Shown here piece by piece: positions 6,122 through 62,741 of a DNA stretch of 64,000 nucleotides. Position 1 is the stretch's first letter, and each line of letters opens with the position of its first letter. The translations under genes were made by a program, and so were the position numbers. The stretch comes from a virus. Below the pieces are notes generated by a model that saw nothing but the letters and a program-made list of their open reading frames with translations, was not told the DNA's origin and did no database searches. Where the stretch lies: the IMG/VR virus record IMGVR_UViG_3300044632_002025; one strand, written 5' to 3'.

Positions 6122-6136
6122 CGCCCAAACTATATT
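6122..6136 (+). promoter_or_regulatory. late-type motif site L1
   Basis: CGCCCAAAC is immediately followed by TATATT. Lies 36 nt upstream of ATG 6172. Confidence 0.5.
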
Positions 6137-6171
6137 GGACAAGATAATTATTCCTAGCTAGGATAGAAAAT

Positions 6172-6456
6172 ATGGCTTTAACTTTTGCCCCCCCAGTCCC
6201 CGCAAGTGGACATTATCAACTAGACCCTTTATATGTTAACTCCGGTGTTGACATCGTTCGTGCTTCTTACGGTTATGATTTGAATGGTACTGCTGATGCT
6301 GACCAATTACTTCAACGTCAAGCCATCATTGCTCTTTTAGAGTTTGCTATCGAAGATACCGCTTTCGTTAATGCTATTCAGGCAATTGCCGCTACTGCTG
6401 GTGTTACTACCCCTGTTTCCTTCGTTTCGGCGTTGGTTACTAAATTAACTGCTTAA
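6172..6456 (+). CDS. hypothetical protein
   Basis: ORF track, 94 aa, Ala/Val-rich. No family recognised. Confidence 0.5.
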   Translation: MALTFAPPVPASGHYQLDPLYVNSGVDIVRASYGYDLNGTADADQLLQRQAIIALLEFAIEDTAFVNAIQAIAATAGVTTPVSFVSALVTKLTA

Positions 6457-6503
6457 TCCGTCCTAATCTGGGTCTGATTCAGCCTTAACCAAGCCCCCCA
6501 GTC

Positions 6504-6743
6504 ATGGGTGGGTATTTTTTTGTACCTATTCCCCTTATTGCAAGCATATTATTATTAAGTCCCAAACCCCTTTCCATAATGGTTTTTTTATTGCTTTTAG
6601 CTTCTTTAATGGTCTTTGCCATTACTATTGTAGCCATTGTTGGTTTACTGTTGGCTTACCGTCAACCTCCTGAACCTCAACGCTTTGATGATTTATCCGA
6701 TTTCGATTTATTAGACCCTAGGGAATTTGCTGACCGTAATTAA
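6504..6743 (+). CDS. small membrane protein (two predicted TM helices), holin candidate
   Basis: Two hydrophobic stretches, FFVPIPLIASILLLSPKPLSIMVFLLLLASLMVFAITIVAIVGLLLA, are followed by a charged tail. Confidence 0.45.
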   Translation: MGGYFFVPIPLIASILLLSPKPLSIMVFLLLLASLMVFAITIVAIVGLLLAYRQPPEPQRFDDLSDFDLLDPREFADRN

Positions 6744-6854
6744 ACCGTCAACAACCACACATTTTTGTTGTGTTCTAATGGGTGATAAGGGGTCATCCTT
6801 TTGGGTGATGGGTGTGGATAACTTTAACCCCCTTGAACAGTACAAATGAACTAA

Positions 6855-6876
6855 TATATAACTGTATAGTTATATA
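6855..6876. repeat. AT-rich inverted repeat TATATAACT-GTAT-AGTTATATA
   Basis: 9-bp perfect arms read directly. A near LexA-like box, AGTACAAATGAACT, sits at 6839-6852. Confidence 0.6.
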
Positions 6877-7258: not shown

Positions 7259-7270
7259 TATACGCCCAAT
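7259..7270 (+). promoter_or_regulatory. late-type motif site L2
   Basis: TATACGCCCAAT, 37 nt upstream of ATG 7307. Confidence 0.45.
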
Positions 7271-7798: not shown

Positions 7799-7859
7799 TT
7801 GGGTCTAACGGGGTCTAACGGGGTCTGACCCATCCTCAACCCTACCTGACCCCTCCTGA

Positions 7860-7880
7860 CCCCTTTGGAAGGGGTTTTTT
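7860..7880 (+). terminator. rho-independent terminator after 7307..7798
   Basis: CCCCTT-tgg-AAGGGG followed by TTTTTT. Confidence 0.7.
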
Positions 7881-7971
7881 ATTGTCAACCCCCAGTCTGC
7901 CCCGGTTAAGCTGGGGGGTGGTTCAAATGTACTAGACAAAGATGAACTGGGGGGGGTAGGGGGGGGTTCTC

Positions 7972-8108
7972 TTTTTTCAGGGCGACCCTTCCTATTCCAT
8001 CCCCCCCAAGTTTGACAGGGCTTAACTGGGTTTGACCCCTAGACCCCCTTTTACCTTGGGTATGAGTATTTATACCTATCCCTAAAGACATAGTACGGGG
8101 TTTGACCC
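7972..8108 (+). repeat. ~137-bp direct repeat R1, copy a
   Basis: TTTTTCAGGGCGACCC...GGTATGAGTATTTATACCT...AGTACGGGGTTTGACCC. About 90% identical to 8312..8448. Confidence 0.85.
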
Positions 8109-8125
8109 GACCAGACCCCGTTTAA

Positions 8126-8189
8126 CCACTTCCACCCAACCTGACCCAGTTAGCTAAGGGTGGAAGTGGGGGGGTTCTTGGGTTTTTTT
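8126..8189 (+). other. 12-bp perfect stem-loop with distal T-run
   Basis: CCACTTCCACCC (8126-8137) pairs with GGGTGGAAGTGG (8158-8169) across a 20-nt loop. TTTTTTT follows at 8183-8189, 13 nt after the stem. Confidence 0.4.
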
Positions 8190-8311
8190 ATGGAGACCTC
8201 CTTGATTCCACTTGGTCGGATTGGGTTGAATCTGGTTTGACCCTGCCAGCCCCAGCCTAAGCCAACCAGCCCCAGCCATTCCTTACTAAGGGGGTAGGGG
8301 GGTTAGGTTGG

Positions 8312-8448
8312 TTTTTCAGGGCGACCCCCCTTATTTCATCCCTCCCAAGTTTAACAGGGCTTAACTGGGTTTGACCCCCCAGACCCCCTTTTACCTTGGG
8401 TATGAGTATTTATACCTATTTCTAAAGACATAGTACGGGGTTTGACCC
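8312..8448 (+). repeat. direct repeat R1, copy b
   Basis: See 7972..8108. A third, partial copy of the G-rich leader (GGTAGGGGGGGTTAGGTTGGTTTTT) is at 8497-8521. Confidence 0.85.
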
Positions 8449-8670
8449 TGCCAGACCAGTCTTAGCCAACCAGTCCCAACTATTCTATACTAGGGGGGTA
8501 GGGGGGGTTAGGTTGGTTTTTATAACGGACAGTTATAACTCCGCACCTGGTCTGACCTGTTTTAGCCCGGTTCAACCCCAGTTTAATACATTTGTACTAT
8601 ATAAATCCACAACTGGGGGGGTTCGAGGCATTTTTCACCCCCCTAGTTTCCCCTTTAGACTCAGATGAAA

Positions 8671-8750
8671 CCCAGTCTGGCCATGTTCAACCCAGTCTGG
8701 TCATGTTCAACCCCGTCTGGCCATGCTTAACCCAGTCTGGTACAAGTGTA
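8671..8750 (+). repeat. four tandem 20-bp iteron-like units
   Basis: The units cccagtctggccatgttcaa, cccagtctggtcatgttcaa, ccccgtctggccatgcttaa and cccagtctggtacaagtgta can be read directly. Confidence 0.8.
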
Positions 8751-8752
8751 CT
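8739..8752. promoter_or_regulatory. LexA-box-like palindrome GGTACAAGTGTACT
   Basis: Copy 4, fused to the last iteron unit. Confidence 0.4.
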
Positions 8753-8952
8753 AAGGGTCTAACAAGTAGGGGGGTTACTTGAATCTGAAATTCTCTCCGA
8801 ACCCCCCCACTTGCCCCCTTAGACCCAGGTGAAACCTAGACAGGACAAGGTTTCCAGGTTGCCCCCTGACTTCCCCTATTAGGACTTAATTGCCGTTGTT
8901 GATGATGGTTAGACCAAGTTTAAAATCTGTCAAAAGTTCAGTGTTTTAAGGG

Positions 8953-8981
8953 TTGCAAAATATTCACGCCCAAGTTATAAT
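8953..8981 (+). promoter_or_regulatory. orphan near-consensus promoter inside the island
   Basis: TTGCAA (8953-8958), 17 nt, TATAAT (8976-8981). The spacer contains CGCCCAAG (8967-8974). No credible ORF lies downstream. Confidence 0.5.
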
Positions 8982-9280
8982 AGGGAAAGAGTCTTGAGGT
9001 CAAATTATACTCTAGGACAAACATTTAACCTAACCATTTTTAGGAAATGTATAAATGGATACATTTTGGGTCAAACTGGGGCTTAAGGGACACCAACATC
9101 GTCAAACCATTCCAGCATGGGGTTTGCGGGGGATTTGCCAAGTCGAAACTGGAGTAGATAGGGCTAACTGGGAAATTGATGCCCTGGACATAAAAAACCA
9201 AAGCAACCCCCCCACTTGATGGGTTAAAACAGGGCTATATCTTTAGAGGTAGGTATAAATACTCATACCTTGTACATAAC

Positions 9281-9437
9281 GGTTAGTCGAGGGCAGTGCG
9301 GGGAGAATTAGTCCTCCCCTGTAGAAAAAACTGACCTACCCCCCCCCACCCCCCCTAGGAGATGAGAGACTGGTTAGTCGAAGGCAGTGCGGGGGGAATT
9401 AGGTCTCCCCCGTAGAAAAAAACTTATCCACCCCCCT
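9281..9437 (+). repeat. two ~65-bp direct repeats R2, each with a G/C hairpin
   Basis: 9281-9345 and 9372-9437 share GGTTAGTCGA(G/A)GGCAGTGCGGGG...CTCCCC..GTAGAAAAAA. Just upstream, AGGTATAAATACTCATACC (9251-9269) is the inverted copy of the 19-mer inside R1 (8059-8077, 8399-8417). Confidence 0.8.
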
Positions 9438-9616
9438 ACCTACCCCGTTGACGGGTTAACCTAGAAACTCTACGGGGTCGGGACTTCAGTAACAACTAGG
9501 GGGGTTATTTTAGGATTCAGACCCCCCCTAGTTGGGAATTTAATACCTAAAACAAATAGGGTTTTATCAACTCTAAACAGGTTAGACATTGATAAAACCT
9601 ATTCGCTATGTTAGCC

Positions 9617-10354
9617 TTACTCTAAACCAATTTGTTTGATTTTGCCAATTTCACAAGCCTTTTTGACAGCTTCAAATGGTTCTAAACCATCTTCAACAAT
9701 AAATCTGGAAGCTAATTCTTCTGCAAACTTTAGCTCTCTTAAGGCTTCAGTAGGAATATGGTCACGGATAGCTCCTGATTCCTTAAGTTGATAGTGGTCT
9801 TTGGCTTGTTTTGATTTAACGCCTAAGACTAGCCCATTGAGATAGTCTGTAGAATTAGGATAGATGAACTTTTTGTAATTAGAACTTAGTTCTGGGTTAT
9901 TTTCCAAATAATATTTGAAAGAGTCAGTTAGGGTGCGACGGGCGATTTTGCTTTCAACTCTGGTTTGGAGACGGTCATTGCGTTCTTCTTCAGTACGTTG
10001 AATATTGAAAGCATGGTCTAAGCGACGTTCTAAAGATTCTACCAAACAGGAAAAAGCTACGGCTTGGCATTTTTTGTTGCCCAGTTGAGCATAAGCACTT
10101 ACTATAGTACAAAAGGTCTCCATACCCATAAGTCTAGCTAATGCGTTAGTACCCTCTACATGAACCTTCTCAACAGAAAGATTGTCCAGTGCCAGTAAGG
10201 GTTTGGCGTATTTTTTACCGGTTGAGTCACCTATAAGAATATCTAATGCTTTGCAACCATTTTGGGACATAGCATAGCTACCATCAGGTAATTGATACCC
10301 TTCAAGTTGGATGCCGCCTAATTTAATTGTGGCTTTTTTGGCTTTGTTGTTCAT
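9617..10354 (-). CDS. hypothetical DNA-binding-like protein
   Basis: Track ORF trimmed to ATG 10354 (MNNKAKKATIKLGG...). The N-terminal DGSYAMSQNG resembles DGKTCGMSQSA in 45987..46826. No firm family call. Confidence 0.5.
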   Translation of the reverse strand: MNNKAKKATIKLGGIQLEGYQLPDGSYAMSQNGCKALDILIGDSTGKKYAKPLLALDNLSVEKVHVEGTNALARLMGMETFCTIVSAYAQLGNKKCQAVAFSCLVESLERRLDHAFNIQRTEEERNDRLQTRVESKIARRTLTDSFKYYLENNPELSSNYKKFIYPNSTDYLNGLVLGVKSKQAKDHYQLKESGAIRDHIPTEALRELKFAEELASRFIVEDGLEPFEAVKKACEIGKIKQIGLE

Positions 10355-10398
10355 AGCTAAATTCCAGTCTGTGAAAAAGAATAACAGACCATAAATCA

Positions 10399-10427
10399 AT
10401 TATAGCAATTTGTCAATGTTCAGACAA
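10399..10427 (-). promoter_or_regulatory. early-type promoter for 9617..10354
   Basis: Minus strand: TTGTCT (10427-10422), 17 nt, TATAAT (10404-10399). Confidence 0.55.
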
Positions 10428-10460: not shown

Positions 10461-10476
10461 ACAATAACGCCCAAAG
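10461..10476 (+). promoter_or_regulatory. late-type motif site L3
   Basis: ACAATAACGCCCAAAG, 38 nt upstream of ATG 10514. Confidence 0.5.
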
Positions 10477-11170: not shown

Positions 11171-11488
11171 CTACCCCAAATTACCCCAAACGAGTCCATC
11201 ATGGGTAGTCAGGCAATATAGAGCCTCGACTACCTTAATTAGTTTTAAAGTCAGAAACGGGGTAAGTTCGGGTAGTTTAGAGAGGGCAAACAAATCACGA
11301 ATGATACCATCAAAAGCATTACAACGGATAACAGAAAGACTAACACAGATAGGGTTGTTATAGTCAGAAGAACCTAGTAGGGCAAGGCGTTCAGCCAATT
11401 CATAGGGGGCGGAGTCGAGACCAGAGATAAGGAAAGAAATATTGCAATGGGTCTCAAACTTTTCCAATTCCAACTGAAATATACGCAT
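11171..11488 (-). CDS. hypothetical protein, reverse-oriented insert between scaffold and capsid genes
   Basis: Track ORF trimmed to ATG 11488 (MRIFQLELEKF), behind GGTAGGTG. It has its own TTCAAT-17-TATAAT on the minus strand at about 11540-11575. Confidence 0.45.
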   Translation of the reverse strand: MRIFQLELEKFETHCNISFLISGLDSAPYELAERLALLGSSDYNNPICVSLSVIRCNAFDGIIRDLFALSKLPELTPFLTLKLIKVVEALYCLTTHDGLVWGNLG

Positions 11489-11645
11489 CTTAACACCTAC
11501 CAATATTTAGACTTAGATTGAGCGGAGTAAAAAGGGGTTCGCCCATTTCCTATTATAGAGGCGAACTACGGCCTATTGAACAGTAGAAACCCTGTGTGGG
11601 ATAAAACACAAAAGAATCTACTGAAAATAATAGGAAAATTAGAAA

Positions 11646-12813: not shown

Positions 12814-13521
12814 ATGGAAGGGAACATACATTATAGGTCAAATATGGCTATCATTCCAAGCAATCAGACTGAATTACTCGCTTTCGTTTCCCAAGATGCC
12901 AGTGAACAAGGGAATTTGTCAATCCGTGGCGTGGCGAAAATGGTGGGAGTAGACGATATGTCTATCATCCGAGCCTGTAAATTTCTAGAGATATACATGG
13001 AGGATGAAACTATAAAGCCGTCCGATACCGTTCTACTATTGGATTATTTATCTGAAACAGATAGTACATTATTATCCGAAAGTTTTGTTAGACGCTTTGG
13101 CTTACTGGGTATTTATGCTTCGACAATCCATTTGTTTGATGGGGTGAGTTTAGGACAAGCTTATAAGACAGCCGCACTAAGTTCTGAGGATTGCCTCAAA
13201 GGATTATTTCAGCAAACTAACAAGGGGAAAAGTAAGGTTACAGGCTATATTTATTGGATACAGCAAGCTACAACAGGTTACACAAAGATAGGGGTTAGTG
13301 TAGACCCCTATAAAAGACTAAGTTCATTACAAGTGGCATCGCCTACCCGTTTAACCTTAATACATAAAAAGCGGTATAATAATTGTGATTTATATGAAAT
13401 AGAGAAACGTATTCACAGACAATATAAAGAATATCATGTCTTAGGCGAATGGTTTGCGCTACCTCAAGATGTGGTCACTAATTTAACTAAGTCCAATAGT
13501 AAGTCTAACGGATTAGGCTAA
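12814..13521 (+). CDS. T5orf172 / GIY-YIG-superfamily domain protein (free-standing homing-endonuclease-like)
   Basis: The C-terminal half, GYIYWIQQATTGYTKIGVSVDPYKRLSSLQVASPTRLTLIH...EIEKRIHRQYKEYHVLGEWF, matches the T5orf172 pattern I know. The N-terminal LSIRGVAKMVGVDDMSIIRA is HTH-like. Confidence 0.6.
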   Translation: MEGNIHYRSNMAIIPSNQTELLAFVSQDASEQGNLSIRGVAKMVGVDDMSIIRACKFLEIYMEDETIKPSDTVLLLDYLSETDSTLLSESFVRRFGLLGIYASTIHLFDGVSLGQAYKTAALSSEDCLKGLFQQTNKGKSKVTGYIYWIQQATTGYTKIGVSVDPYKRLSSLQVASPTRLTLIHKKRYNNCDLYEIEKRIHRQYKEYHVLGEWFALPQDVVTNLTKSNSKSNGLG

Positions 13522-13536
13522 ACTAAACAAAATGGG

Positions 13537-13602: not shown

Positions 13603-13621
13603 ACAACGCTCAAACTAAATA
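13603..13621 (+). promoter_or_regulatory. late-type motif site L4
   Basis: ACAACGCTCAAAC followed by TAAATA. Lies 23 nt upstream of ATG 13644. Confidence 0.45.
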
Positions 13622-14675: not shown

Positions 14676-15632
14676 CTAAAGATGAGAATCTTGGTCAGAA
14701 TCAAAAAAGTCCTTTGCTTCTAAATCGGAGTTAAATGGCTTAACCCATTGGGTAATTTTTTGGCGGATTTCAGTCCCATTAAGAATCCTGGTATCTTTTT
14801 CCATAGCAGAGTCACCAGACTCACCTGTAAAAAATTTACGGGCAGGAACCCAACCAATAAACCCGCCACACATCACAGATGCGTCGATGGCTACGGCAGT
14901 ATGCTCTAAAGCTGACCAATGCTTTGAGCTAACTAGACGTAAAAATAGTTTAACATCCTTTTCCACATCCATATTCCCTTCGTGGTTTAGGTAAGACACT
15001 CTCGCACAACGAGAGGCTGACAGAGCAATGAGTAAAAGAGTATTACCTTTGTACAGTTCTCTTTCCTCATGGGTTACATAGGGCAGATGCAAACCACCAT
15101 CTGATAGGATATAAGCAGAACATTTGTGGTAAGCCTCAAGCATTAAGCGGGCTACTTTTCTAATCTCTGGCTGGGCTTTTTCAGAAGTACGAAGTTCAAA
15201 AAAGTTGAACCATTGAGTGCCGGTCAGCACCACATCCACCATTTGAAAAGGCTCAGTAAGTCGGTTCACAATTTCTTTATGAACCCCAAGCAGGTTCAAT
15301 AAATTAGCCCAAAACCGTTGGGAGTGCATGGAGCAGAACCATACAAGGTCAGCTAATTTAGCCTTTAGACCCGTCAGGGGCTTACCAGCTTGCATTCCTG
15401 ACTTATTCGTACCCCATTGGTCAGGGTGATAGGGATTCTCTACTAATTTTCGGTCTTTTTTCTTAATCGGAACAGCCCGATTCGACTCGGTATTAGAGGA
15501 CAAAATACGGTGTTTATTGAGTTGAGCTAAGACAAATCGGGGAATACGAATTTGAAAAGTGGTAATAGTGTCGCCTGTGATGGAATTGACACTTTGTTCG
15601 ATGACCTTAGCGTGGTATTGGGTAGGTTTCAA
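14676..15632 (-). CDS. thyX: FAD-dependent thymidylate synthase (ThyX-like)
   Basis: Carries a ThyX signature variant, KHRILSSNTESNRA (canonical RHRxxSxxxxSxR). Also has downstream ...SASRCARVSY... and ...HWSALEHTAV. The TTG start overlaps the sigma gene stop (TTGA). Confidence 0.65.
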   Translation of the reverse strand: MKPTQYHAKVIEQSVNSITGDTITTFQIRIPRFVLAQLNKHRILSSNTESNRAVPIKKKDRKLVENPYHPDQWGTNKSGMQAGKPLTGLKAKLADLVWFCSMHSQRFWANLLNLLGVHKEIVNRLTEPFQMVDVVLTGTQWFNFFELRTSEKAQPEIRKVARLMLEAYHKCSAYILSDGGLHLPYVTHEERELYKGNTLLLIALSASRCARVSYLNHEGNMDVEKDVKLFLRLVSSKHWSALEHTAVAIDASVMCGGFIGWVPARKFFTGESGDSAMEKDTRILNGTEIRQKITQWVKPFNSDLEAKDFFDSDQDSHL

Positions 15633-16156
15633 GAATTTGCTCCTAATTTCTTAATTTTTCTGACTTCTGACTTATAAGTTCGCAGGGTAAGACCCAGAGT
15701 TTTAGCTATTACCTCTTGGGTAAGACCCATTAGACGTTTGCGGACAATTTGCTTTTGGAGGGGGGTGAGTTTTGACCAGAAGAGGTTCAGGGTCATTTGG
15801 TATTCAGTGGAATCGACTAGGGATGCCATATTGTCTAGGGGAAAATCTCGAAGTTGGCATTCCATGACATAGGTTTTGTGCCGAATAAGGCGGAACCTTT
15901 TGCGAATATCCAACCAGCAATAGCTGGTGAGCGTTCCTTTGTTGGGGTTCCAAGTCTTAAGTTTTTCTAGAACCAGACAAAGACCTTCCTGAAAGTAATC
16001 CTCTCCTTTGACTGACGTATCACGCATAGCACGACGGATAGCGGGGATTTGGGATTTAACCAAATTTAGTTTAGACGTTTCACAGGCTTGTTGTTCGATG
16101 GTTAGATGACAGTATTCCATGACAGAGGTTTTGAATTTTAGACGGCTTAACCCCAC
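15629..16156 (-). CDS. sigma-70-family RNA polymerase sigma factor (phage-encoded)
   Basis: The region 2-like segment is GTLTSYCWLDIRKRF. The region 4 HTH-like segment is LTPLQKQIVRKRLMGLTQEVIAKTLGLTLRTYKSEVRKI. The start is uncertain: GTG 16156 or ATG 16120. Confidence 0.6.
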   Translation of the reverse strand: MGLSRLKFKTSVMEYCHLTIEQQACETSKLNLVKSQIPAIRRAMRDTSVKGEDYFQEGLCLVLEKLKTWNPNKGTLTSYCWLDIRKRFRLIRHKTYVMECQLRDFPLDNMASLVDSTEYQMTLNLFWSKLTPLQKQIVRKRLMGLTQEVIAKTLGLTLRTYKSEVRKIKKLGANS

Positions 16157-16300: not shown

Positions 16301-16319
16301 AATCGCCCAAAGCTAAGTT
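16301..16319 (+). promoter_or_regulatory. late-type motif site L5
   Basis: AATCGCCCAAAG-C-TAAGTT, 27 nt upstream of ATG 16346. Confidence 0.5.
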
Positions 16320-24248: not shown

Positions 24249-24266
24249 TATCGCTCAAACTAAAAG
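24249..24266 (+). promoter_or_regulatory. late-type motif site L6
   Basis: TATCGCTCAAAC followed by TAAAAG. Lies 20 nt upstream of ATG 24286. Confidence 0.45.
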
Positions 24267-26058: not shown

Positions 26059-26080
26059 ACAATAACGCCCAAACTAAGTC
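26059..26080 (+). promoter_or_regulatory. late-type motif site L7
   Basis: ACAATAACGCCCAAAC followed by TAAGTC. Lies 22 nt upstream of ATG 26102. Confidence 0.5.
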
Positions 26081-26524: not shown

Positions 26525-26526
26525 TC

Positions 26527-26920: not shown

Positions 26921-26940
26921 GATAACGCCCAGACTATAGA
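26921..26940 (+). promoter_or_regulatory. late-type motif site L8
   Basis: GATAACGCCCAGAC followed by TATAGA. Confidence 0.4.
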
Positions 26941-31790: not shown

Positions 31791-33097
31791 GTTTCCCTAA
31801 CTTTCACCCTACAAGAATTGAGGGCTTTACTCTCCCTGATTTCGGACTTCTAACCATTGAAGACCAAGCAGGGGAAGAGCGTAGAGCTATGCAATACACT
31901 GGTGGTAGGGATGCTAAGTTGGACGTTTTTTTTGAAGGGCTTAATGAGTCTCAAATTCTTGAACTATTAGATTTCTATAAAAATATTTATAGCTCTGGGA
32001 GGGGGTTCGGTTTCCCCTCTAACTTTTTTGTCGGGCAAGAAATTTACTATGAGGCTTTGAAAAAATCTCTAGGTAAATTTTTACTTTATTTTACAAGCCC
32101 CCCCACTGTAAAAACTCTATACAGTGGTATCTACAGCATAAGAACACAACTAAAGGCCAGTAATGCCTTCATTTCTGCCCCCTCCAAAATATATGTCACG
32201 TTACAAACTCAAACTTCTGTTAGTGCTATAGCCTCCACAACTTTTGTTGTTTGGAGTCAAGTGTCGGGTTCCCCTGTAACTTTCTCTGAACCTAACAGCT
32301 TAAACACTCTTGTGACTTCTCAAGGTGGTGTTTTTAACACTGTCAACGGACGGATTTTCTTAAAAATAGCATTGGTTGATAACCTTGATGTCTTCAGTCT
32401 TGTGGAGATAGTACCTTCCCCAACCAGTTTCGATGTTTTAGGTGGTCTTAGCTTGTACCCCTCTGTCCCTGAACACCCCTCTAGCTTAAAGGTTTCCCCC
32501 CCTTTAATCTTTTCCCCCGCAGACTCCGAGGAAGCTTACTTCAAACGCAAAATAAATATTGACTCTGTTAGTTTTAGATGGTCTTTACCCGCTCAACCAG
32601 CTTTCTTAACCCACTTTAATATTGAGGTTTATAACAAGCCTAATTGGGAATCTGTAGCTACTACCGAATCTAACTCTTATACTCTCCCCCCTAAAACTAC
32701 TTTTCGTATAGTTTCTAGTTACAATATTGGCGGGCGTATCTTTTCCGTCCCCTCTGATATTTTCTATGTAGACCCCTTGATTCATCTTGATAGCTATGGT
32801 TATGGTTCAGATACAGTTAGCGAAATAAAAGTTATCCCTTCTTTCCTAGAGAGCCGAGTTTTAGATTTATTTAATACTCAAAAGTTTCCAGAGAGTTTTT
32901 GGGATACCACTATAGGCTTTGTAGGCTCAAACCCTAATGAAAACCCTTTGCCTCTTTCCAACAGTTTCATCTTTGCTTATTCTCTTTCCAGTACCAACGA
33001 CTCCCCCACTCAAAGTTCGTGGCACGCCCAAGTTTCTGTTATAGGCGGAATTAAATCTGTAACTGACTTAAATCTAGGTGGGGTAGTAATTGGCTAA
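31787..33097 (+). CDS. tail fibre-like protein with gpM-like N-terminal module (fourth copy)
   Basis: ATGA overlap with the upstream gene. The N-terminus, FPNFHP...LPDFGLLT...GEERRAM...LDVFFEGLNESQILELLDFYKN...GFGFP, is followed by a ~310-aa extension. Confidence 0.5.
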   Translation: MSFPNFHPTRIEGFTLPDFGLLTIEDQAGEERRAMQYTGGRDAKLDVFFEGLNESQILELLDFYKNIYSSGRGFGFPSNFFVGQEIYYEALKKSLGKFLLYFTSPPTVKTLYSGIYSIRTQLKASNAFISAPSKIYVTLQTQTSVSAIASTTFVVWSQVSGSPVTFSEPNSLNTLVTSQGGVFNTVNGRIFLKIALVDNLDVFSLVEIVPSPTSFDVLGGLSLYPSVPEHPSSLKVSPPLIFSPADSEEAYFKRKINIDSVSFRWSLPAQPAFLTHFNIEVYNKPNWESVATTESNSYTLPPKTTFRIVSSYNIGGRIFSVPSDIFYVDPLIHLDSYGYGSDTVSEIKVIPSFLESRVLDLFNTQKFPESFWDTTIGFVGSNPNENPLPLSNSFIFAYSLSSTNDSPTQSSWHAQVSVIGGIKSVTDLNLGGVVIG

Positions 33098-35766: not shown

Positions 35767-35781
35767 ACAATAACGCCCAAT
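35767..35781 (+). promoter_or_regulatory. late-type motif site L9
   Basis: ACAATAACGCCCAAT, 23 nt upstream of ATG 35804. Confidence 0.5.
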
Positions 35782-36931: not shown

Positions 36932-36946
36932 ATTCCCTAACGCCCA

Positions 36947-36958
36947 ATTTCATACTTG
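36947..36958 (+). promoter_or_regulatory. late-type motif site L10
   Basis: CTAACGCCCAAT, then CATACT 3 nt later. Lies 27 nt upstream of ATG 36985. Confidence 0.5.
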
Positions 36959-38861: not shown

Positions 38862-38879
38862 TAACGCTCAAACTAAAAT
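38859..38879 (+). promoter_or_regulatory. late-type motif site L11
   Basis: CAATAACGCTCAAAC followed by TAAAAT. Back to back with the minus-strand promoter. Confidence 0.4.
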
Positions 38880-39311: not shown

Positions 39312-39329
39312 CTTGGGCGTTATTGTCTA
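39312..39329 (-). promoter_or_regulatory. late-type motif site L12
   Basis: Minus strand: TAGACAATAACGCCCAAG, 31 nt upstream of ATG 39281. Confidence 0.5.
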
Positions 39330-43293: not shown

Positions 43294-43349
43294 AGGGTGG
43301 GCGGGGTTAGGTCTTCTACTTAGGTCATGAGCGTCCCTACCCTCGCCCC

Positions 43350-45140: not shown

Positions 45141-45152
45141 ATTGGGCGATGG
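45141..45152 (-). promoter_or_regulatory. late-type motif site L13
   Basis: Minus strand: CCATCGCCCAAT, then C-TAAGAC. Lies 31 nt upstream of ATG 45110. Confidence 0.45.
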
Positions 45153-46938: not shown

Positions 46939-46963
46939 TTTGTTCCTTGTTTGGTTTATTTAA

Positions 46964-47871: not shown

Positions 47872-47885
47872 TTTTGGGCGCATAC
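47872..47885 (-). promoter_or_regulatory. late-type motif site L14
   Basis: Minus strand: GTATGCGCCCAAAA, 33 nt upstream of ATG 47839. Confidence 0.45.
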
Positions 47886-50719: not shown

Positions 50720-51283
50720 TTACTCTTGCTCGATTTTGGAATCCAAAGGGACATCTAATTCCTCCTGTTGAACGGGGGTAACACCATCCTGTTCTGGTGT
50801 TTGCCCAATTTCATCCAGTAGTGTTTGTAAATGGTTATAAATACCCATGATGGTTTTAGAGCGTAATCTTTTAAAGGTTCCTACTGGTTGGCCAAGCAGT
50901 GCCTCAATCATTTTTCGAGCGGGGGCTAACATCTGGGCTTCCAATTTAGCTTTCCGTACAGCATCTTTGGCATCTTTGGTCTGTACTAGCACCACAGTAC
51001 CATTTTCATCTTCTTGTCCAAAAATATTAATGTAGGCATCCATAGCCTCGCTCCGTCCAGCAAAATAGGCAATATACTGTTCTTCTAAAAGATTCTCTGG
51101 GCTAGTTACCTGATAGGTCTTACCATTTACAGTTACTTCACCCAAAGGCTCAGTGTCATCTAAGAACTGGGGGATAATCTTTTCGTCAATAAGGGTCATA
51201 AACTTTTTTATTTGTGTGACTACACTCTCAAATTGGGCGTATTTGTCTGGATAGACTGCGAGATTATGAAGATTAAGTTTCAT
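50720..51283 (-). CDS. hypothetical protein
   Basis: ORF track, 187 aa. First gene of the minus-strand operon that ends with phoH. Confidence 0.5.
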   Translation of the reverse strand: MKLNLHNLAVYPDKYAQFESVVTQIKKFMTLIDEKIIPQFLDDTEPLGEVTVNGKTYQVTSPENLLEEQYIAYFAGRSEAMDAYINIFGQEDENGTVVLVQTKDAKDAVRKAKLEAQMLAPARKMIEALLGQPVGTFKRLRSKTIMGIYNHLQTLLDEIGQTPEQDGVTPVQQEELDVPLDSKIEQE

Positions 51284-51390: not shown

Positions 51391-52296
51391 ATGTCTGAAT
51401 TTACCAACGCCCCTATTATTGTTAACGACTTTAGGGTAGCAGTGTACCAGATTTACCATCAGTACCAGTTTATTAAAGCCAATCTTCCTGCCGCTACTGC
51501 CTCAACTTGGTTAAAGGCTACATGGGCTATTACATTGAATCGGGGGTTTACTGGTCTTCCTTATTTCCCCCATACAGTGGTGGTAGTAGATGATAGTAGC
51601 CCTTACTGGAGAGAAGCCTACCTTAGAGAGAGAGGATTCCCAGAGTATAAAGGTGGTAGACCCTCTAAAACCGATGAATGGTATGAGGTCAACCAAGCTG
51701 GGTTAGATTATGTAACTGCCCCTAACAGCCCTATTCACTATTTAAGATTCCCCCAATTTGAGGCAGATGATATAGCCTCTGCCATTGTAAGAAGCAAAAG
51801 TAATAGACTGGTTTTTCTCCACACGATAGACTCTGACTGGATGGGTTTGGTTAACAATGGTGTCCTCAACAGTATGACCTTAGACCAAGCCCTATTGGAA
51901 CCCTTTGTGGAACCCACCTCTCTCTGGGTCAGTATGGCGCAATGGACTCCTCGGTTCCGTGATGAGGCGGGTGTATTTGCTCACACCTTAAAACGGGAAA
52001 AACGTAAAATTGACTCTCCCCCCCAAATTTGGGATATAAAAGTTGAAAAAGGCGATAAGAGTGATAATCTCATCAAAGGTAGTCCTATCGAAGTGATTAA
52101 TCTACTCAATCCCCCTCCTGAATTTGATATTTTACAAAGAGCTAACTACGCACCACAGGTACGTCAAGTGGTTAACTCCGGTGAACCCAATTCTAGTTTT
52201 AAGCACCTGAAGAAAGCCCACGACTGGTTTGTTGAATCTGGTCAAAGAGTAACAGTACATGGGTACTATGACTTTTTAAGTCCAGAGTTGACTTGA
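51391..52296 (+). CDS. 5'-3' exonuclease / flap endonuclease (PIN-like, T5 D15 / RNase H type)
   Basis: VVVVDDSSPYWREAYL...PEYKGGRPSK, FEADDIASAIV and HTIDSDWMGLV match the FEN acidic clusters. Confidence 0.6.
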   Translation: MSEFTNAPIIVNDFRVAVYQIYHQYQFIKANLPAATASTWLKATWAITLNRGFTGLPYFPHTVVVVDDSSPYWREAYLRERGFPEYKGGRPSKTDEWYEVNQAGLDYVTAPNSPIHYLRFPQFEADDIASAIVRSKSNRLVFLHTIDSDWMGLVNNGVLNSMTLDQALLEPFVEPTSLWVSMAQWTPRFRDEAGVFAHTLKREKRKIDSPPQIWDIKVEKGDKSDNLIKGSPIEVINLLNPPPEFDILQRANYAPQVRQVVNSGEPNSSFKHLKKAHDWFVESGQRVTVHGYYDFLSPELT

Positions 52297-52321
52297 CAGA
52301 CTTCGCTCAAACTGTTATACT
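52293..52321 (+). promoter_or_regulatory. early-type promoter (also carries a CGCTCAAAC box in the spacer)
   Basis: TTGACA-GACTTCGCTCAAACTGT-TATACT. Confidence 0.65.
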
Positions 52322-54383: not shown

Positions 54384-54395
54384 TTAACGCCCAAG
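54384..54395 (+). promoter_or_regulatory. late-type motif site L15
   Basis: TTAACGCCCAAG, 41 nt upstream of ATG 54436. Confidence 0.45.
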
Positions 54396-57405: not shown

Positions 57406-57434
57406 TTGACACCTGCCATACCCTCTGTTATACT
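57406..57434 (+). promoter_or_regulatory. early-type promoter
   Basis: TTGACA-CCTGCCATACCCTCTGT-TATACT. Confidence 0.7.
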
Positions 57435-59357: not shown

Positions 59358-59371
59358 CTTTGGGCGCATAG
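59358..59371 (-). promoter_or_regulatory. late-type motif site L16
   Basis: Minus strand: CTATGCGCCCAAAG, 30 nt upstream of ATG 59328. Confidence 0.45.
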
Positions 59372-59412: not shown

Positions 59413-59424
59413 TATACGCCCAAT
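59413..59424 (+). promoter_or_regulatory. late-type motif site L17
   Basis: TATACGCCCAAT, 35 nt upstream of ATG 59459. Confidence 0.45.
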
Positions 59425-59458
59425 GTCCTGTACAGAAGCATCATTCCCCCAATTTATA

Positions 59459-62400
59459 ATGGCCAGACGCAAAGGTAGAAAATTATACTCCCCTAATTCC
59501 CCCCAAGACCCCAGGAAATCCCGTGGCGGTAATATTAAAGATGGTATGGGGGTTGTTAAAGGTACTAATGTTAAAGGGGAAGCTTTTTCCTTTGACCCGT
59601 CTAAGCACAAACGAGACCCCTTGACTGGTAAATGGGCTACTAAACCTGATGTGGTTAAGCCCCAAAAAGATAAGAAAAAAGCCACTAAACCCACTTCTTC
59701 CGAGGCTAAAAAAACTAAACCATCCTCCCCCTTCGCCAAATTTAGACAAAGGGTTCGTGATGCTTTAAAACAACAATTAATTAATTACGCAAAAAATAAA
59801 TCAGATAAGTCTAAATCCACACCGTCTAAACCTGATTCTGTGTCAACTGTGCCAGTTAATGCTAAACCTATTGAGAAAAAGAATTTTACCCTGGATGACT
59901 ATACTCAAAGAGGACAAGAAATTAGCTCTAAATATGGGTTGAGTGATAATAAGTTCTTAGGCAGACTGGCGAAGTTAATAGACAAATTACTCAGTTTCCA
60001 AGAAAAACCGTCATTAACGCCTTCTGACATGGAGGAACTAAAAAAAATTAATGACGATATATTGGAGACACAAAAGAAGGCCTATGAAGACTTTGAGAAA
60101 AAAGTTGAACAACTTTTAGACGACTATAGAGAAAATGCTTCAGATTTAGACATGGATAAAGTAATTTTAAAGACTAGATTTGTAAGAAATGGTTTTCCAA
60201 GAGATTTAAATGAGGACGTTGATATGGTGAGGGAAGCCTATAAAGATTTTCACTATCTCACTAACGGCAATATTATAGGCTTTCCCAATTTGTTGGATGT
60301 TAACAATGAAGGTAATAGCTATGCCGTTTACCCTAATAAACCCGCACAAAGTTCAATAGTCAGCATTGGGACATCTGGACAGGGGGAAGTTCCTCTGAGG
60401 CAGGCGACCTTCCATGAATTGGCGCACCTAGTTGAGCTTCATGTTCCTGGTCTCAAAGAAGCGTCTCTAGAGTTCCTGAAAAAACATAGTTACACTGGAA
60501 CTCTAGAGAATTTTGATTACCTGGGTGTACCTATCTCAGGATATAAGGGGGACTTTATAGATGAATATGTGGGTAGATTTTACGTCCAAAATTCAGCCAC
60601 AGAGGTTTTATCTACGGGATTTGAACGTTTAAGTAATCCAGATAGCGCATTTAAACTTTTTGTAAATTCTAATCATCACTTTAATTATATTCTTGGTGCG
60701 CTTGACCGTGTTAACTCTACTAGAAATTCTGAATCTTACCGGCTACCAAATAAATCTGTTAGGAAAATACCAAATAAATCTGCTGAGGAAATACCAAATA
60801 AATCTGCTGAGGAAATACCAAATAAATCTGCTGAGGCAAAGAATTTGACCCTAGATAACTACACTCAAAGAGGACAAGAAATTAGCTCTAAATATGGGTT
60901 GAACGATACTAAAACACTAGGAAAACTCCAAGAACTAAGTGGTATACTAAGAGAATTTAACACTAAAATAATGGGTATGTATGACGACCCTACTTTAACC
61001 GACTCCGACAGAGAAGAAGTTATACGTCAATTTGACGAGGTTTTCAAAAAACACAAAAATCTTGAAAAGAAATTTAGGGCAAAATTCGAGAAAAATGTTC
61101 AAAATCTTCTAGAATCCTACAAAGAAGCTAGTAAAGATTTAGACTTAGAGAAACTTTTGGAAAATTCTAAATTCACATTGTATGGGCAAGAACTAGATAA
61201 ATCAGATAGGAACGTGGATTTAGTGAAAGAAAGTGTTAAAGATTTCCACTCTCTTACTAAGGGGTTTCTGGGAGAATTGGTTCCTATGATTGACGTAGAC
61301 AGAAATGGTTCTAGTTACGTCCGCTACCATCCAGATAAGCCAGAAAAATTGACACATATTAGAATCGGGGCTATTGGACTCGGTGATGAAGTATTTAAAC
61401 TTCAGACCTTCCATCAAATGGCTCACATTCTGGAATCCCACATACCTGGACTCCTAAAAGCATCTATGGAGTTCCTGAAAAAACATAGTTATTCGGGGCA
61501 AGAGGAAGACATCGAACACAGGGGTATGACCTACAGAGGGTATAAAGGTGATTTTATAAATAATTATGTGGGTAGAACATACAACAAAGGGGTATCAGCC
61601 ACAGAGGTTATATCTACAGGTTTTGAAAGACTTCGTAACCCTACAGACGCATTTACTCTCTACACAGAATCAAACCATCACTTTAATTTTATTCTTGGGG
61701 TTCTAGATAGTATTAACCAGACTGAGCCGCCTAAAACAAAATTAATGAGTAGCTTAACTCAAAAAAACTTAGACCCTAAACCAGAACCCGCAGAGCCAAA
61801 ACCAACTACTCCTAAACAGGTTTCCAAAGAGTACACTGATACTATTAATTCTGCAAAATCTAAAATCTCCCAGTATAAACTGGATAGACTTGTCAAAGTT
61901 TTTGAAACTCAAGATGCCCAAATCAATGCGGAGCTAAAATCTTTAGACCCTAAAAACCCTGAAGACGTTGAAAAAGCCCAAAAACTTTTTGCTAGAAAAC
62001 GTAAACTGAAGCAGTCTCTTGATACTTACCTTGAGAAACAGATGAACTTATTGTATCAAGAACTGCTTGATAATAATAATTCTGTAAACTCTGACCTCCT
62101 AGTGGGACAAACTAATTTTCAAATAGGTGAATACACTAAAAATCTTAAACCAGCCAATACTGAAGACCCTATCTATAAAACTCACACTCCTGTAATTAGT
62201 AAGGCTTTGGCTGAATTTCATAAACTTACAGGGGGGATTCTGAACAACTTAGTCCCCCGTATAGGACTCAGCGAAAAAAAAAGAAGTTGGGCTGGATTCG
62301 ATGCAAAAGAACCCCAAAAAAATAATTATCTTTCTATATCTGTAACCCGTTCCAATGATGTTAAACCCTCAGTTTTTCATGAAGCGGCACACCTGTTGGA

Positions 62401-62722
62401 AGGGTCTGACCCTAAATTTGCCAACTTAGCTAAGGAATTTTTAGCTAAAAATAGAACTTCAGATGAACTTAAGCAAATAAAGGGTTATCCTGCTGGCGAA
62501 GTGGCTTACCCTGGAAACTGGGTTCACCCCTATGTGGGTAAAAATTATGAAAATGCCCCCTCCACAGAAGTAATTTCAATGGGTATAGAACGATTTGCTA
62601 GTCCTAGAGATATGGCGGAATTTTATTTTAAAGATAAGGAACATTTTGCTCTAACTTTGGGGATTATAGAATCCCTTAAAGTCCCTGAACATCTAAAACC
62701 AAAACCTGCTACAATATATTAG
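59459..62722 (+). CDS. large late protein: basic N-terminus plus three tandem ~320-aa HExxH (zincin-like) modules
   Basis: Track ORF trimmed to ATG 59459, because motif L17 overlaps the earlier start. Modules start near 59879, 60839 and 61800. Metal-site motifs are FHELAHLVE (HELAH 60413-60427), FHQMAHILE (61412-61426) and FHEAAHLLE (62378-62392). Each is followed by ..YVGR.Y...(S/A)TEV(L/I)S.G.ER. Confidence 0.6.
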   Translation: MARRKGRKLYSPNSPQDPRKSRGGNIKDGMGVVKGTNVKGEAFSFDPSKHKRDPLTGKWATKPDVVKPQKDKKKATKPTSSEAKKTKPSSPFAKFRQRVRDALKQQLINYAKNKSDKSKSTPSKPDSVSTVPVNAKPIEKKNFTLDDYTQRGQEISSKYGLSDNKFLGRLAKLIDKLLSFQEKPSLTPSDMEELKKINDDILETQKKAYEDFEKKVEQLLDDYRENASDLDMDKVILKTRFVRNGFPRDLNEDVDMVREAYKDFHYLTNGNIIGFPNLLDVNNEGNSYAVYPNKPAQSSIVSIGTSGQGEVPLRQATFHELAHLVELHVPGLKEASLEFLKKHSYTGTLENFDYLGVPISGYKGDFIDEYVGRFYVQNSATEVLSTGFERLSNPDSAFKLFVNSNHHFNYILGALDRVNSTRNSESYRLPNKSVRKIPNKSAEEIPNKSAEEIPNKSAEAKNLTLDNYTQRGQEISSKYGLNDTKTLGKLQELSGILREFNTKIMGMYDDPTLTDSDREEVIRQFDEVFKKHKNLEKKFRAKFEKNVQNLLESYKEASKDLDLEKLLENSKFTLYGQELDKSDRNVDLVKESVKDFHSLTKGFLGELVPMIDVDRNGSSYVRYHPDKPEKLTHIRIGAIGLGDEVFKLQTFHQMAHILESHIPGLLKASMEFLKKHSYSGQEEDIEHRGMTYRGYKGDFINNYVGRTYNKGVSATEVISTGFERLRNPTDAFTLYTESNHHFNFILGVLDSINQTEPPKTKLMSSLTQKNLDPKPEPAEPKPTTPKQVSKEYTDTINSAKSKISQYKLDRLVKVFETQDAQINAELKSLDPKNPEDVEKAQKLFARKRKLKQSLDTYLEKQMNLLYQELLDNNNSVNSDLLVGQTNFQIGEYTKNLKPANTEDPIYKTHTPVISKALAEFHKLTGGILNNLVPRIGLSEKKRSWAGFDAKEPQKNNYLSISVTRSNDVKPSVFHEAAHLLEGSDPKFANLAKEFLAKNRTSDELKQIKGYPAGEVAYPGNWVHPYVGKNYENAPSTEVISMGIERFASPRDMAEFYFKDKEHFALTLGIIESLKVPEHLKPKPATIY
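60746..60841 (+). repeat. four tandem 24-nt repeats (PNKSAEEI)n in the linker between modules 1 and 2
   Basis: ccaaataaatctg(t/c)t(a/g)agg(a/c)aa(a/t)a is repeated four times. It encodes PNKSVRKI, PNKSAEEI, PNKSAEEI, PNKSAEAK. Confidence 0.85.
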
Positions 62723-62730
62723 TAGTCTCG

Positions 62731-62741
62731 AACGACCAAAT
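62731..62741 (+). promoter_or_regulatory. variant late-type motif (AACGACCAAAT)
   Basis: One mismatch in the core (A for C). Lies 23 nt upstream of TTG 62764. Confidence 0.25.

Follow-up and report, generated by a model that had tools for sequence, protein, structure and literature searches.

The DNA examined here, a 64,000-nucleotide window of a viral genome (IMG/VR record IMGVR_UViG_3300044632_002025), contains a short repeated box, CGC(C/T)CAA, that marks late transcription units. We propose that this box is probably the core of a late promoter used in a small clade of Mic1-like Microcystis cyanosiphophages, where it would be read by a phage sigma factor combined with the host core RNA polymerase. 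The window derives from a cyanosiphophage, a relative of Microcystis phage Mic1 (approximately 68% amino acid identity in TerL), and represents part of the phage genome, so other regulators may sit outside it. For comparison we used Mic1 and seven metagenomic relatives from two clades (labelled L003, L004, L005, L009 and so on). Expression classes were taken from the published Mic1 RNA-seq (PMC11237433, Table S1) and transferred to window genes by orthology.

Distribution and placement of the box

The enrichment, orientation and spacing of the motif are not random. The form ACGCCCAA is present in 12 copies against 1.15 expected, a number reached in none of 100 shuffles, and the 11-mer with at most one mismatch in 19 copies against 3.4 expected. 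The core CGC[CT]CAA occurs 27 times, compared with approximately 7 under a third-order Markov model. The first-pass annotation had raised the question of whether the motif is equally common inside genes; intergenic DNA, which makes up 12.3% of the window, holds 18 of the 27 copies (binomial P=6e-11), 17 of them aimed at the next start codon. In total 21 copies are gene-proximal and co-oriented with the downstream gene, a placement for which background rates predict about 0.1 by chance, and the distance from core to start codon is mostly 23-44 nt. The strongest sites carry the upstream extension TTAGACAATAA, and a frequent extended form in the Mic1-like clade is tTAGACAATAA-CGCYCAA-aCTA. Two pairs of cores are arranged divergently, back to back, at separations of 15 and 50 nt. 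The sites are listed below with the Mic1 ortholog and its expression class in brackets.

6122..6128, plus: CGCCCAA, 43 nt before the cement-protein ortholog (Mic1 gp47, L2) at 6172
7263..7269, plus: TTAGACTATA-CGCCCAA, 37 nt before the HTH protein ortholog (gp48, L1) at 7307
10468..10474, plus: TTAGACAATAA-CGCCCAA, 39 nt before the scaffold ortholog (gp42, L2); also in Mic1 and L009
11518..11524, minus: CGCTCAA, before ORF 11171-11503 (minus); back to back with the copy directed at the major capsid gene
11540..11546, plus: variant CGCCCAT, 99 nt before the major capsid gene (gp40, L2)
13607..13613, plus: CGCTCAA, 30 nt before the gp38 ortholog (L1)
16304..16310, plus: CGCCCAA, 35 nt before the tape-measure gene (gp35, L2)
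24252..24258, plus: CGCTCAA, 27 nt before the minor tail gene (gp34, L2)
26066..26072, plus: TTAGACAATAA-CGCCCAA, 29 nt before the gp33 ortholog (L1)
26926..26932, plus: variant CGCCCAG, before the gp31 ortholog (L1), whose probable start, ATG 26961, is 28 nt downstream
33025..33031, plus: CGCCCAA, inside the gp26 ortholog and 65 nt before the gp25 ortholog (33097)
35774..35780, plus: TTAGACAATAA-CGCCCAA, 23 nt before the gp23 ortholog (L2)
36941..36947, plus: CGCCCAA, 37 nt before the tail tube gene (gp20, L2)
38865..38871, plus: CGCTCAA, putative site 34 nt before a 23-aa Lys/Pro-rich ORF, 38906-38977
39313..39319, minus: TTAGACAATAA-CGCCCAA, 31 nt before ORF 39018-39281 (minus); adjoins the left end of a TnpB element
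43327..43333, minus: one-mismatch variant CGCTCAT, 33 nt before the portal gene (tentative)
45142..45148, minus: CGCCCAA, 31 nt before the TerL start (ATG 45110)
47874..47880, minus: CGCCCAA, 34 nt before ORF 46997-47839 (minus)
51233..51239, minus: CGCCCAA, 33 nt before the probable true start (ATG 51199) of the gp94-97 ortholog operon (L1)
54388..54394, plus: CGCCCAA, 41 nt before the muramidase/lysin ortholog (gp9, L1)
59360..59366, minus: CGCCCAA, 31 nt before the gp16 ortholog (receptor-binding protein, L1)
59417..59423, plus: CGCCCAA, 35 nt before ATG 59459 of a 1087-1099 aa ORF; divergent partner of 59360..59366, cores 50 nt apart
62733..62739, plus: one-mismatch variant CGACCAA, 24 nt before ORF 62764; weak, possibly chance
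8953..8981, plus: hybrid promoter TTGCAA-N17-TATAAT with CGCCCAA (8967-8973) in the spacer
52293..52321, plus: hybrid promoter TTGACA-N17-TATACT with CGCTCAA (52304-52310) in the spacer

All motif sites listed in the first-pass annotation are present where it placed them; it lacked 11518-11524 (minus), 33025-33031 (plus) and the variants 11540-11546 and 43327-43333 (minus). Its late gene at 38906 is preceded by the motif, but the gene itself amounts to a 23-aa ORF. The copy at 51232-51242, set down there as a coding-region counter-example, is instead a genuine upstream site that supports the pattern, because homology to Mic1 gp94 begins at about residue 29 of the long window ORF and the Mic1 motif lies 38 nt before gp94.

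Late expression and conservation among relatives

The idea that the motif marks late transcription units is supported by the published Mic1 expression classes, both in Mic1 itself and among the window orthologs, and by retention of the motif in two clades. In Mic1, 13 late genes of 43 have the motif, as does 1 of the 55 in the early and middle classes (p=6e-5); for window genes, classed by orthology, the corresponding values are 16 of 30 and 0 of 14 (p=3e-4). Approximately 14 of the 30 late-gene orthologs in the window have no motif of their own, as would be expected if they lie within operons. Within late-late pairs of Mic1 genes, a post-hoc subset, expression of the downstream gene changes by a median of about +3.5 log2 when the motif lies between the two versus -0.7 when it does not (p=0.02); across all Mic1 gene pairs the expression-step test was not significant (p=0.19). 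Individual steps include +4 log2 at gp33, where Mic1 has the motif at the same place, and +3.1 log2 at gp25, where the Mic1 copy is at an identical distance.

The core is kept at orthologous positions in Mic1 and the seven metagenomic relatives, and Mic1 carries it upstream of gp9, gp16, gp23, gp25, gp33, gp38, gp40, gp42, gp47 and gp94 as the window does for their orthologs. When as many as 9 genomes of the two clades are aligned, it stands out as an island of conservation (the 13607..13613 core in a 9-genome alignment), with C/T swaps inside the core and diverged flanks. At the major capsid site, where a conserved structured leader follows the core, L003, L005 and all Mic1-clade genomes have CGCCCAA at the same position; the tape-measure site reads CGCCCA(C/T) in the Mic1 clade, and the Mic1 portal gene has CGCCCAA 26 nt ahead of it. 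A distant relative that lacks the sigma gene shows no enrichment of the motif in intergenic DNA (1/18). The Mic1 transcriptome paper gives gp36 only the name 'RNA polymerase sigma-70 factor' and does not contain the word 'promoter' (PMC11237433), and the 2020 Mic1 genome paper presents BPROM predictions of sigma-70-type promoters only; a cognate late motif is thus not described in either.

The sigma-70-family protein and the architecture of the sites

The window encodes a divergent two-domain sigma-70-family protein, described as follows together with its promoter.

15629..16156, minus: ortholog of Mic1 gp36; probable start ATG 16120, giving 163 aa
16258..16286, minus: sigma-70-type promoter TTGACA-N17-TGTTATACT (11/12 matches), which drives the sigma/ThyX operon

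The first-pass annotation had recognized the sigma-70 family and the promoter type, both of which hold, and had implied early transcription, which does not: Mic1 gp36 belongs to class M2 (middle) and rises ahead of the late genes (PMC11237433, Table S1). The ORF, moreover, is on the minus strand. It is 163-175 aa long, shares 41% identity with gp36 as a direct ortholog, and is flanked in both phages by the tape-measure gene and thyX. The protein matches TIGR02937 across regions 2 and 4 (E=1.5e-8), with scores under the curated cut-offs (34.5 vs 42.9 bits; for PF08281, 25.2 vs 25.7). A profile built from the Mic1-like clade alone matches the sigma-H structure PDB 3mzy (E=2.7e-6), the protein's distant homologs are true sigma factors in which regions 2 and 4 are both present, and the PHROG annotation is 'RNA polymerase sigma factor'. 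An AF2 model shows two helical domains (pLDDT 83), with fold matches that are nearly all sigma factors. The gene occurs in both clades, and Mic1 was the only positive among 50,697 phage records.

We found no conserved -35 element at the motif sites, in agreement with the first-pass annotation, yet a region-4-like HTH is present in the sigma-like protein. The late region is depleted of sigma-70-like matches (29 vs 48.5+/-7.3), and high-scoring ones overlap the motif at only two sites, 8953-8981 and 52293-52321, so that both hybrid promoters proposed earlier are real. These properties bear on an unlikely alternative, that the box binds a phage activator or sigma-appropriation factor that recruits host primary-sigma polymerase to weak -10 elements just downstream, leaving the sigma-like protein another or minor role. 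A candidate exists in a second conserved middle-class 'transcriptional regulator', the Bro-N-like gp17 ortholog (48353-49084, minus), and the upstream TTAGACAATAA flank could belong to a longer protein-binding site. The TAnnnN hexamer previously described after the box is retained as a 'TA' at +9/+10 in 9/20 window and 5/13 Mic1 sites, which would suit such recruitment; the full TAnnnT at fixed offset, however, is found at only 3/20 and 4/13, its T(-7) equivalent is unconserved in both clades, and any TAnnnT within +7..+16 of the core is no commoner than background. A -10-like hexamer as a component of the promoter is not supported by these counts. Three hybrids (two in the window, one in Mic1) place the box inside the spacer of a good sigma-70 promoter, but at 3, 5 or 8 nt past the -35, which gives no fixed geometry with the -10. 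At 35774, with a -10 at +9..+14, transcription would begin within the AGGAGG Shine-Dalgarno sequence (+19..+24 from the first core base), and the sigma is the only obvious promoter-specificity protein kept in both clades.

We regard as improbable a role in RNA, in which the box would act in the 5' leader, through processing, stability, antitermination or translational control, and be transcribed from farther upstream or by read-through. Its sense-strand position, mostly 23-44 nt from the start codon, would fit, as would hairpins that include the CCCAA at a minority of sites (39319, 45148, 54388; Mic1 gp2 and gp9), but no hairpin was found at most sites. Some sites directly follow intrinsic terminators (13534-13557, 50 nt upstream of the 13607..13613 core; 47920-47901, with the 47874..47880 core starting 20 nt past it), and these and the divergent pairs leave no space for upstream promoters; no other conserved upstream element was seen. 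A terminator-like hairpin and T-run lie between the motif and the ATG of the lysin gene in both phages, and after the box at the Mic1 portal gene. At these places RNA that includes the box would end ahead of the gene, and a transcript begun just past the box would escape. The Mic1 gp8/gp9 late-class switch also requires new late initiation. Least credible is a box that plays no part in transcription, being either a target or recombination site for mobile DNA (a TnpB/IS605-like element or homing endonucleases) or a repeat due to chance or composition: in the window, L004 and L005 the left end of a TnpB element does adjoin the box in reverse complement, but there is only one such element in the window, orientation, start-codon distance, ortholog conservation in two clades and late-class association are left unexplained, and chance is excluded by the shuffles and Markov expectations. 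More likely, the TnpB element has taken as its target a conserved promoter word that exists in many copies.

Proposed late transcription and related systems

These observations favor the box being a promoter rather than another cis element, and co-occurrence, timing and analogy suggest the phage sigma as its reader. Host polymerase with the host primary sigma would transcribe early and middle genes, the sigma operon among them, from strong TTGACA-N17-TATACT promoters. The phage sigma would then join the host core enzyme, and the new holoenzyme would initiate at approximately 20 single-element promoters without a -35. Predicted starts lie a few bases downstream of the box, giving leaders of 15-37 nt. 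Such promoters would head the head, tail, packaging and lysis units, and the same type would allow re-initiation inside the long tail operon.

The closest parallel we considered is phiEco32, in which the middle-gene sigma gp36, reported to have no region 4 homology, reads single-element middle/late promoters (tAATGTAtA) and transcription starts 6-8 bp downstream of the element (PMC8948821). The system proposed here would share with it a highly divergent phage sigma whose pre-late gene is transcribed by the host sigma-70 holoenzyme, and one conserved block without a -35 upstream of late genes; the 6-8 bp geometry would suit the 23-44 nt box-to-ATG distances here. The promoters are unrelated, however (GC-rich CGCYCAA versus an AT-rich element), the window sigma has a region-4-like HTH, which phiEco32 gp36 is reported to lack, and the window phage is a long-tailed siphophage of a cyanobacterial host. 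No cofactor resembling phiEco32 gp79 was identified for it.

T4 and the T4-like cyanomyophages use the sigma gp55 at TATAAATA late promoters. There too, a single -10-like element without a -35 is used and a phage sigma-family protein redirects the host core enzyme. T4 gp55, whose single domain is region-2-like, depends on gp33 and the sliding clamp, whereas the window sigma has two domains; the T4 motif is AT-rich, and the window showed no homologs of gp33 or gp45. ECF (group 4) sigmas recognize bipartite promoters, such as GGAACTT-N16-TCAAA for E. coli sigma-E. The window protein resembles them in consisting of sigma-2 and sigma-4 only, with TIGR02937 sigma70-ECF as its best family match, and the box (CGCTCAAA) recalls the C/G-containing ECF -10 elements (CGT/GTC/TCAAA). 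It differs in scoring below the curated cut-offs, in having no adjacent anti-sigma factor and in a gene not preceded by its own promoter type, and the sites have no conserved -35 'AAC' at 16-17 nt. If the pairing of motif and sigma is true, it would represent a further case of a known viral strategy, the use of the virus's own sigma factor for its late genes.

The CGCYCAA box in the window and its relatives

The first-pass annotation had proposed that a motif of approximately 10 nt marks the late transcription units of the window, and the motif proved to be real: ACGCCCAA occurs in 12 copies against 1.15 expected, and the 11-mer with one mismatch allowed in 19 copies against 3.4 expected. The minimal word common to all sites is CGC[C/T]CAA (CGCYCAA, here termed the box), with 27 copies against ~7 expected under a third-order Markov model. 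Intergenic DNA comprises 12.3% of the window and holds 18 of the 27 copies (binomial P=6e-11), 17 of which face the next start codon, and the distance from box to ATG clusters at 23-44 nt. Three apparently coding copies become upstream sites after correction of gene starts (gp numbers are those of genes in the Microcystis phage Mic1, the reference relative):

45142-45148 (minus strand): box before the large terminase gene, TerL
51233-51239 (minus strand): box 33 nt ahead of where the gp94 ortholog probably starts
33025-33031 (plus strand): box 65 nt before the gp25 ortholog, at the same distance as in Mic1

The second of these had been put forward as a coding-region counter-example (51232-51242) and loses that status with the corrected start. 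The six copies that lack gene context are about as many as chance predicts. An unbiased comparison of intergenic and coding k-mers yielded two motif classes, the box and (GTTAA)CCCTTGACA, the latter being the -35 region of strong sigma-70-type promoters. One box lies 34 nt before a Lys/Pro-rich ORF of 23 codons (38906-38977, MKKSSGCKKPKMPKPKPLKPKKA); the gap that holds this ORF separates two minus-strand genes and is otherwise non-coding.

When 20 sites are aligned, they share a single block, tTAGACAaTAA-CGC(C/T)CAA-a-C-T-A, spanning about -12 to +10. No position between -50 and -13 is conserved in the information profile of these sites, so the box sites have no -35 element. A -10-like hexamer had also been described directly after the box. 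The dinucleotide TA is found at +9/+10 in 9/20 window and 5/13 Mic1 sites, the full TAnnnT at +9 in only 3/20 and 4/13, and TAnnnT anywhere in +7 to +16 at background frequency; the hexamer is thus no general component of these sites. At site 35774, a -10 hexamer at +9 to +14 would put the start within the AGGAGG ribosome-binding site, and a start 6-8 nt past the box would keep AGGAGG in the mRNA. This spacing, together with the hairpin arms that overlap the box at the lysin and portal genes (see below), would be indirectly in line with transcripts beginning ~6-9 bp past the element. The box is a single element without a -35, upstream of and co-oriented with genes.

A nucleotide search of the window (64 kb, 40.8% G+C) against 50,697 phage records returned no match. 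Mic1, a freshwater cyanosiphophage of 92.6 kb, has a large terminase ~68% identical to that of the window and homologs for 44 of the 71 called window ORFs; gene order is largely conserved, and the shared genes cover a block of small early genes as well as the modules for head, tail, replication and lysis. The Mic1 TerL is 952 aa long and matched in three pieces, against 591 aa in the window, which suggests an intein or other insertion in Mic1. Within the structural modules of the window lie an HNH endonuclease (37658-38806, minus strand), which has a TTGACA promoter of its own (38833-38861), and a T5orf172/MUG113-domain protein (12814-13521, plus strand); both are probably homing endonuclease insertions, since neither has a Mic1 counterpart.

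Mic1 carries 24 copies of CGC[C/T]CAA, of which 12 are intergenic (P=2e-4) and all 12 of these are gene-directed. The box is common to both phages at ten orthologous genes (gp9 lysin, gp16, gp23, gp25, gp33, gp38, gp40 major capsid protein [MCP], gp42 scaffold, gp47 cement and gp94), and one-mismatch boxes lie at the same distance before other Mic1 late genes (TerL, tail tube, the tape-measure gene, gp29 and gp97). Alignments of up to nine genomes (the window, Mic1 and the IMG/VR contigs L003-L009) upstream of the gp38, scaffold, MCP and tape-measure orthologs show the box as a conserved island between diverged flanks, with C/T swaps within the core. In Lbo402-yong5, a distant cyanophage relative without the sigma gene described below, the word shows no intergenic bias (1/18 copies, P=0.85).

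Late expression and the sigma-like protein

A Mic1 infection time course sorts each gene into early, middle or late clusters (PMC11237433) and allowed the box to be compared with expression. In Mic1, a box lies within 100 nt upstream of 13/43 late genes versus 1/55 early or middle genes (Fisher p=6.4e-5); by orthology, the window has a box at 16/30 late versus 0/14 early or middle genes (p=3.5e-4). The reading of the motif as a late-gene signal is therefore well supported by independent data. Inside Mic1 late operons, the box-preceded genes gp23, gp25, gp33, gp47 and gp83 step up by ~2-5.6 log2 units; this step is significant among late-late gene pairs, a post-hoc subset (p=0.02), and not over all co-directional Mic1 gene pairs (p=0.19). 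The time-course study names a sigma factor and the temporal classes and contains no promoter analysis (PMC11237433), and the 2020 Mic1 genome paper used BPROM only for promoter prediction. Our literature search for the box motif found no description, and matches to the motif string were irrelevant.

The sigma-70-family protein that the first-pass annotation had recognized is borne out by several profiles. It is encoded by ORF 15629-16156 on the minus strand, has a probable start ATG at 16120 and is 163-175 aa long. In TIGR02937 (sigma70-ECF), profile positions 18-159 match residues 44-170, covering regions 2 and 4 (E=1.5e-8); the 34.5 bits fall below the curated cut-off of 42.9. For region 2, a profile built only from the phage clade (A2) matches the sigma-H structure PDB 3mzy across the region (E=2.7e-6), an ortholog (P0003) matches PF04542 (E=6e-4), and the motif GEDYxQEG...W is conserved. 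For region 4, PF08281 (Sigma70_r4_2) gives a marginal match (E=1.3e-5, 25.2 bits versus a cut-off of 25.7), and in the AF2 model the helical bundle at the C-terminus resembles sigma-4/LuxR-type helix-turn-helix (HTH) folds. Sigma-factor families of PHROG also match (E=3e-6). In this model (pLDDT 83), a linker of low confidence (residues 92-95) connects two helical domains, and nearly all of the top structural matches are to sigma factors, with the weak E-values expected for a flexible two-domain protein. Regions 1.1 and 3 are absent, and the size is within ~160-200 aa.

An exhaustive search of 1.84 billion representative proteins recovered eight relatives only, a word-indexed protein search found close relatives only, and scans of viral and metagenome data for a third clade returned the same two clades, at ~98% and ~41% identity. 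Of the eight relatives, the distant members are bona fide sigma factors that carry both region 2 and region 4. Both sigma and box are present in both clades.

The Mic1 ortholog, gp36, is 41% identical and is described as an 'RNA polymerase sigma-70 factor' of cluster M2, a middle class; its transcript is first present at 1 h, having been absent at 0.5 h, and peaks at 4-6 h, immediately ahead of the late-gene rise (PMC11237433). No box precedes the sigma gene of the window, where TTGACA-N17-TATACT is found instead:

16258-16286 (minus strand): sigma gene promoter, TTGACA-N17-TGTTATACT, of the strong host-type class

Orthologs of Mic1 early genes and of its middle genes have promoters of this class as well, and the consensus promoter and the M2 class of gp36 place production of the sigma before that of late genes, from a host-sigma promoter. 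The gene has no anti-sigma neighbor, the downstream gene being ThyX. Near-identical promoter cassettes of ~60 nt (ttttctcaaaCCCCTTGACACCTAATCTACTCTCTGTTATACTGGGGTTAACCCAAC) at 16258-16286 (minus strand), 52547-52575, 52697-52725 and 57406-57434 precede the sigma/thyX operon and orthologs of Mic1 middle genes, and may constitute a distinct middle subclass of host-type promoters. A tRNA was the only match in an Rfam scan of the window. A tRNA-Met (CAT anticodon, 46866-46939, plus strand) comes immediately after a promoter that matches the sigma-70 consensus at 12/12 positions:

46812-46841: tRNA-Met promoter, TTGACA-N18-TATAAT

Readings of the box

On balance, we consider it probable that CGCYCAA marks late promoters read by the phage sigma together with host core RNA polymerase (RNAP). 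Host-sigma holoenzyme would make the phage sigma in the middle phase, and the phage sigma with host core RNAP would then initiate at single-element CGCYCAA promoters. Assignment of the sigma to the box is plausible from co-occurrence, timing and analogy. A more ambitious version is possible but doubtful: that a tiny phage-restricted sigma with a region-4 HTH reads a single GC-rich 7-bp element without a -35, and that the genome is built around this word through terminator-embedded late promoters, hybrid early/late promoters and a target or TAM for a TnpB element.

In each of the hybrids, a good sigma-70-type promoter has the box within its 17-nt spacer:

8953-8981 (window): hybrid promoter
52293-52321 (window): hybrid promoter
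near 54438 (Mic1, minus strand): hybrid promoter

The offset of the box within these spacers varies. By rough arithmetic, ~0.03 such cases would be expected by chance among ~25 promoters, so the hybrids are probably functional; from their layout they could be either dual early-plus-late promoters or sites where the late factor occludes them. The first points into an ORF-poor stretch (7800-9600) with several short tandem repeats, including a 20-nt unit in 3.6 copies at 8669-8740 that is expanded in the related contig L005, and this stretch may therefore be a non-coding RNA or regulatory region.

The best surviving alternative, which we regard as unlikely, is that the box is read by an activator working with the host primary sigma, as T4 MotA does. 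A candidate exists in the conserved middle-class Bro-N-like regulator at 48353-49084 (minus strand), the gp17 ortholog, but only 3/20 window and 4/13 Mic1 sites show TAnnnT, the sigma-70 -10 hexamer such promoters would need, at a constant spacing (+9) from the box. PHROG 'transcriptional regulator' families match both this protein and that of 9617-10399 (minus strand); gp17 is a highly expressed middle gene of Mic1, and its ortholog is the rival candidate for a late-gene regulator.

That the box instead acts as a leader RNA element is very unlikely, and several findings favor a start signal at the DNA level. Some boxes lie 20-50 nt past intrinsic terminators (13534-13557; 47920-47901), and two back-to-back divergent pairs have cores only 15 nt (11518/11540) and 50 nt (59360/59417) apart, which leaves no room for other promoters. 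Apart from the two window hybrids, box sites have no high-scoring sigma-70-type promoter, and sigma-70-like matches are depleted in the late structural region 25000-44999 (29 versus 48.5+/-7.3 in shuffles). Folding of 50 nt from every box gave strong hairpins at ~5/20 window and 2-3/13 Mic1 sites, and hairpins starting in or after the box are likewise confined to a minority; a hairpin was thus rejected as the defining feature. A terminator-like hairpin with a T-run does lie between box and ATG at the lysin gene of both phages and the Mic1 portal gene:

54392-54435 (window): lysin gene hairpin
11299-11334 (Mic1, L001): terminator-like hairpin and T-run
2876-2905 (Mic1, L001): terminator-like hairpin and T-run

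The 5' arm of these hairpins either overlaps the box or directly adjoins it; in the Mic1 portal case this arm is formed by the box. Read-through RNA would be expected to terminate here, and RNA begun a few bases past the box would lack the arm. This arrangement suggests overlapping terminator/late-promoter modules from which box-initiated RNA alone escapes termination, and such escape also fits the switch from class M1 to L1 between Mic1 gp8 and gp9. Separately, the MCP leader (window 11547-11645, ~95 nt) is conserved across both clades and folds as a two-tier stem-loop with compensatory changes in 5/14 pairs; it may be a regulatory or stabilizing 5'UTR.

A mobile-element target or other non-transcriptional repeat is a highly improbable account of the box. 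A TnpB/IS605-like element is found at window 39313-41129, with the TnpB gene at 39651-41081 and its own sigma-70-type promoter at 39534-39562, and at a different locus in two near-identical relatives (L004 14216-16032; L005 13903-15541). In 3/3 cases the reverse complement of the late core (TTGGGCG or TTGAGCG) directly adjoins the element's left end, and the 11-mer at the element's terminus, TTAGACAATAA, is identical to the flank that precedes the core at the strongest late sites. At the junctions examined, a clean empty site or target duplication was not definable; the late-promoter word may be the insertion target or TAM of this element.

Comparison with known systems and implications

The closest characterized system is that of phage phiEco32, which combines a pre-late phage sigma with single-element promoters: its gp36 is a middle-gene sigma acting at tAATGTAtA promoters with starts 6-8 bp downstream (PMC8948821). 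The CGCYCAA word is GC-rich in contrast to that promoter, and the phage sigma here retains an HTH resembling region 4 even though its putative promoters conserve no -35. T4 gp55 with TATAAATA is a looser analogy. ECF sigma factors recognize bipartite promoters, with a -35 'AAC' and a -10 'CGT'-type element ~16-17 nt apart, and are typically autoregulated and co-transcribed with an anti-sigma factor. The 20 sites of the window form a single block rather than such a bipartite promoter, and a sigma without autoregulation or an anti-sigma neighbor departs from two behavioral hallmarks of that group. The proposed sigma/promoter pair is new for Mic1-like phages and of a well-known kind.

The general picture of phage sigma cascades is unchanged, and the relevance is mainly to cyanophage and transcription specialists, for whom this would add a case of a two-domain sigma apparently working without a -35 element. 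The pair would also offer orthogonal sigma/promoter parts for cyanobacterial synthetic biology and cyanophage engineering. Transcriptional programs have, to our knowledge, scarcely been charted in the freshwater cyanophages that kill bloom-forming Microcystis. With the late-promoter word, annotators of Mic1-like genomes and metagenomic contigs could place late operons and correct start codons, as for the gp94 and gp31 orthologs here, and the published early, middle and late classes would gain a mechanistic basis.
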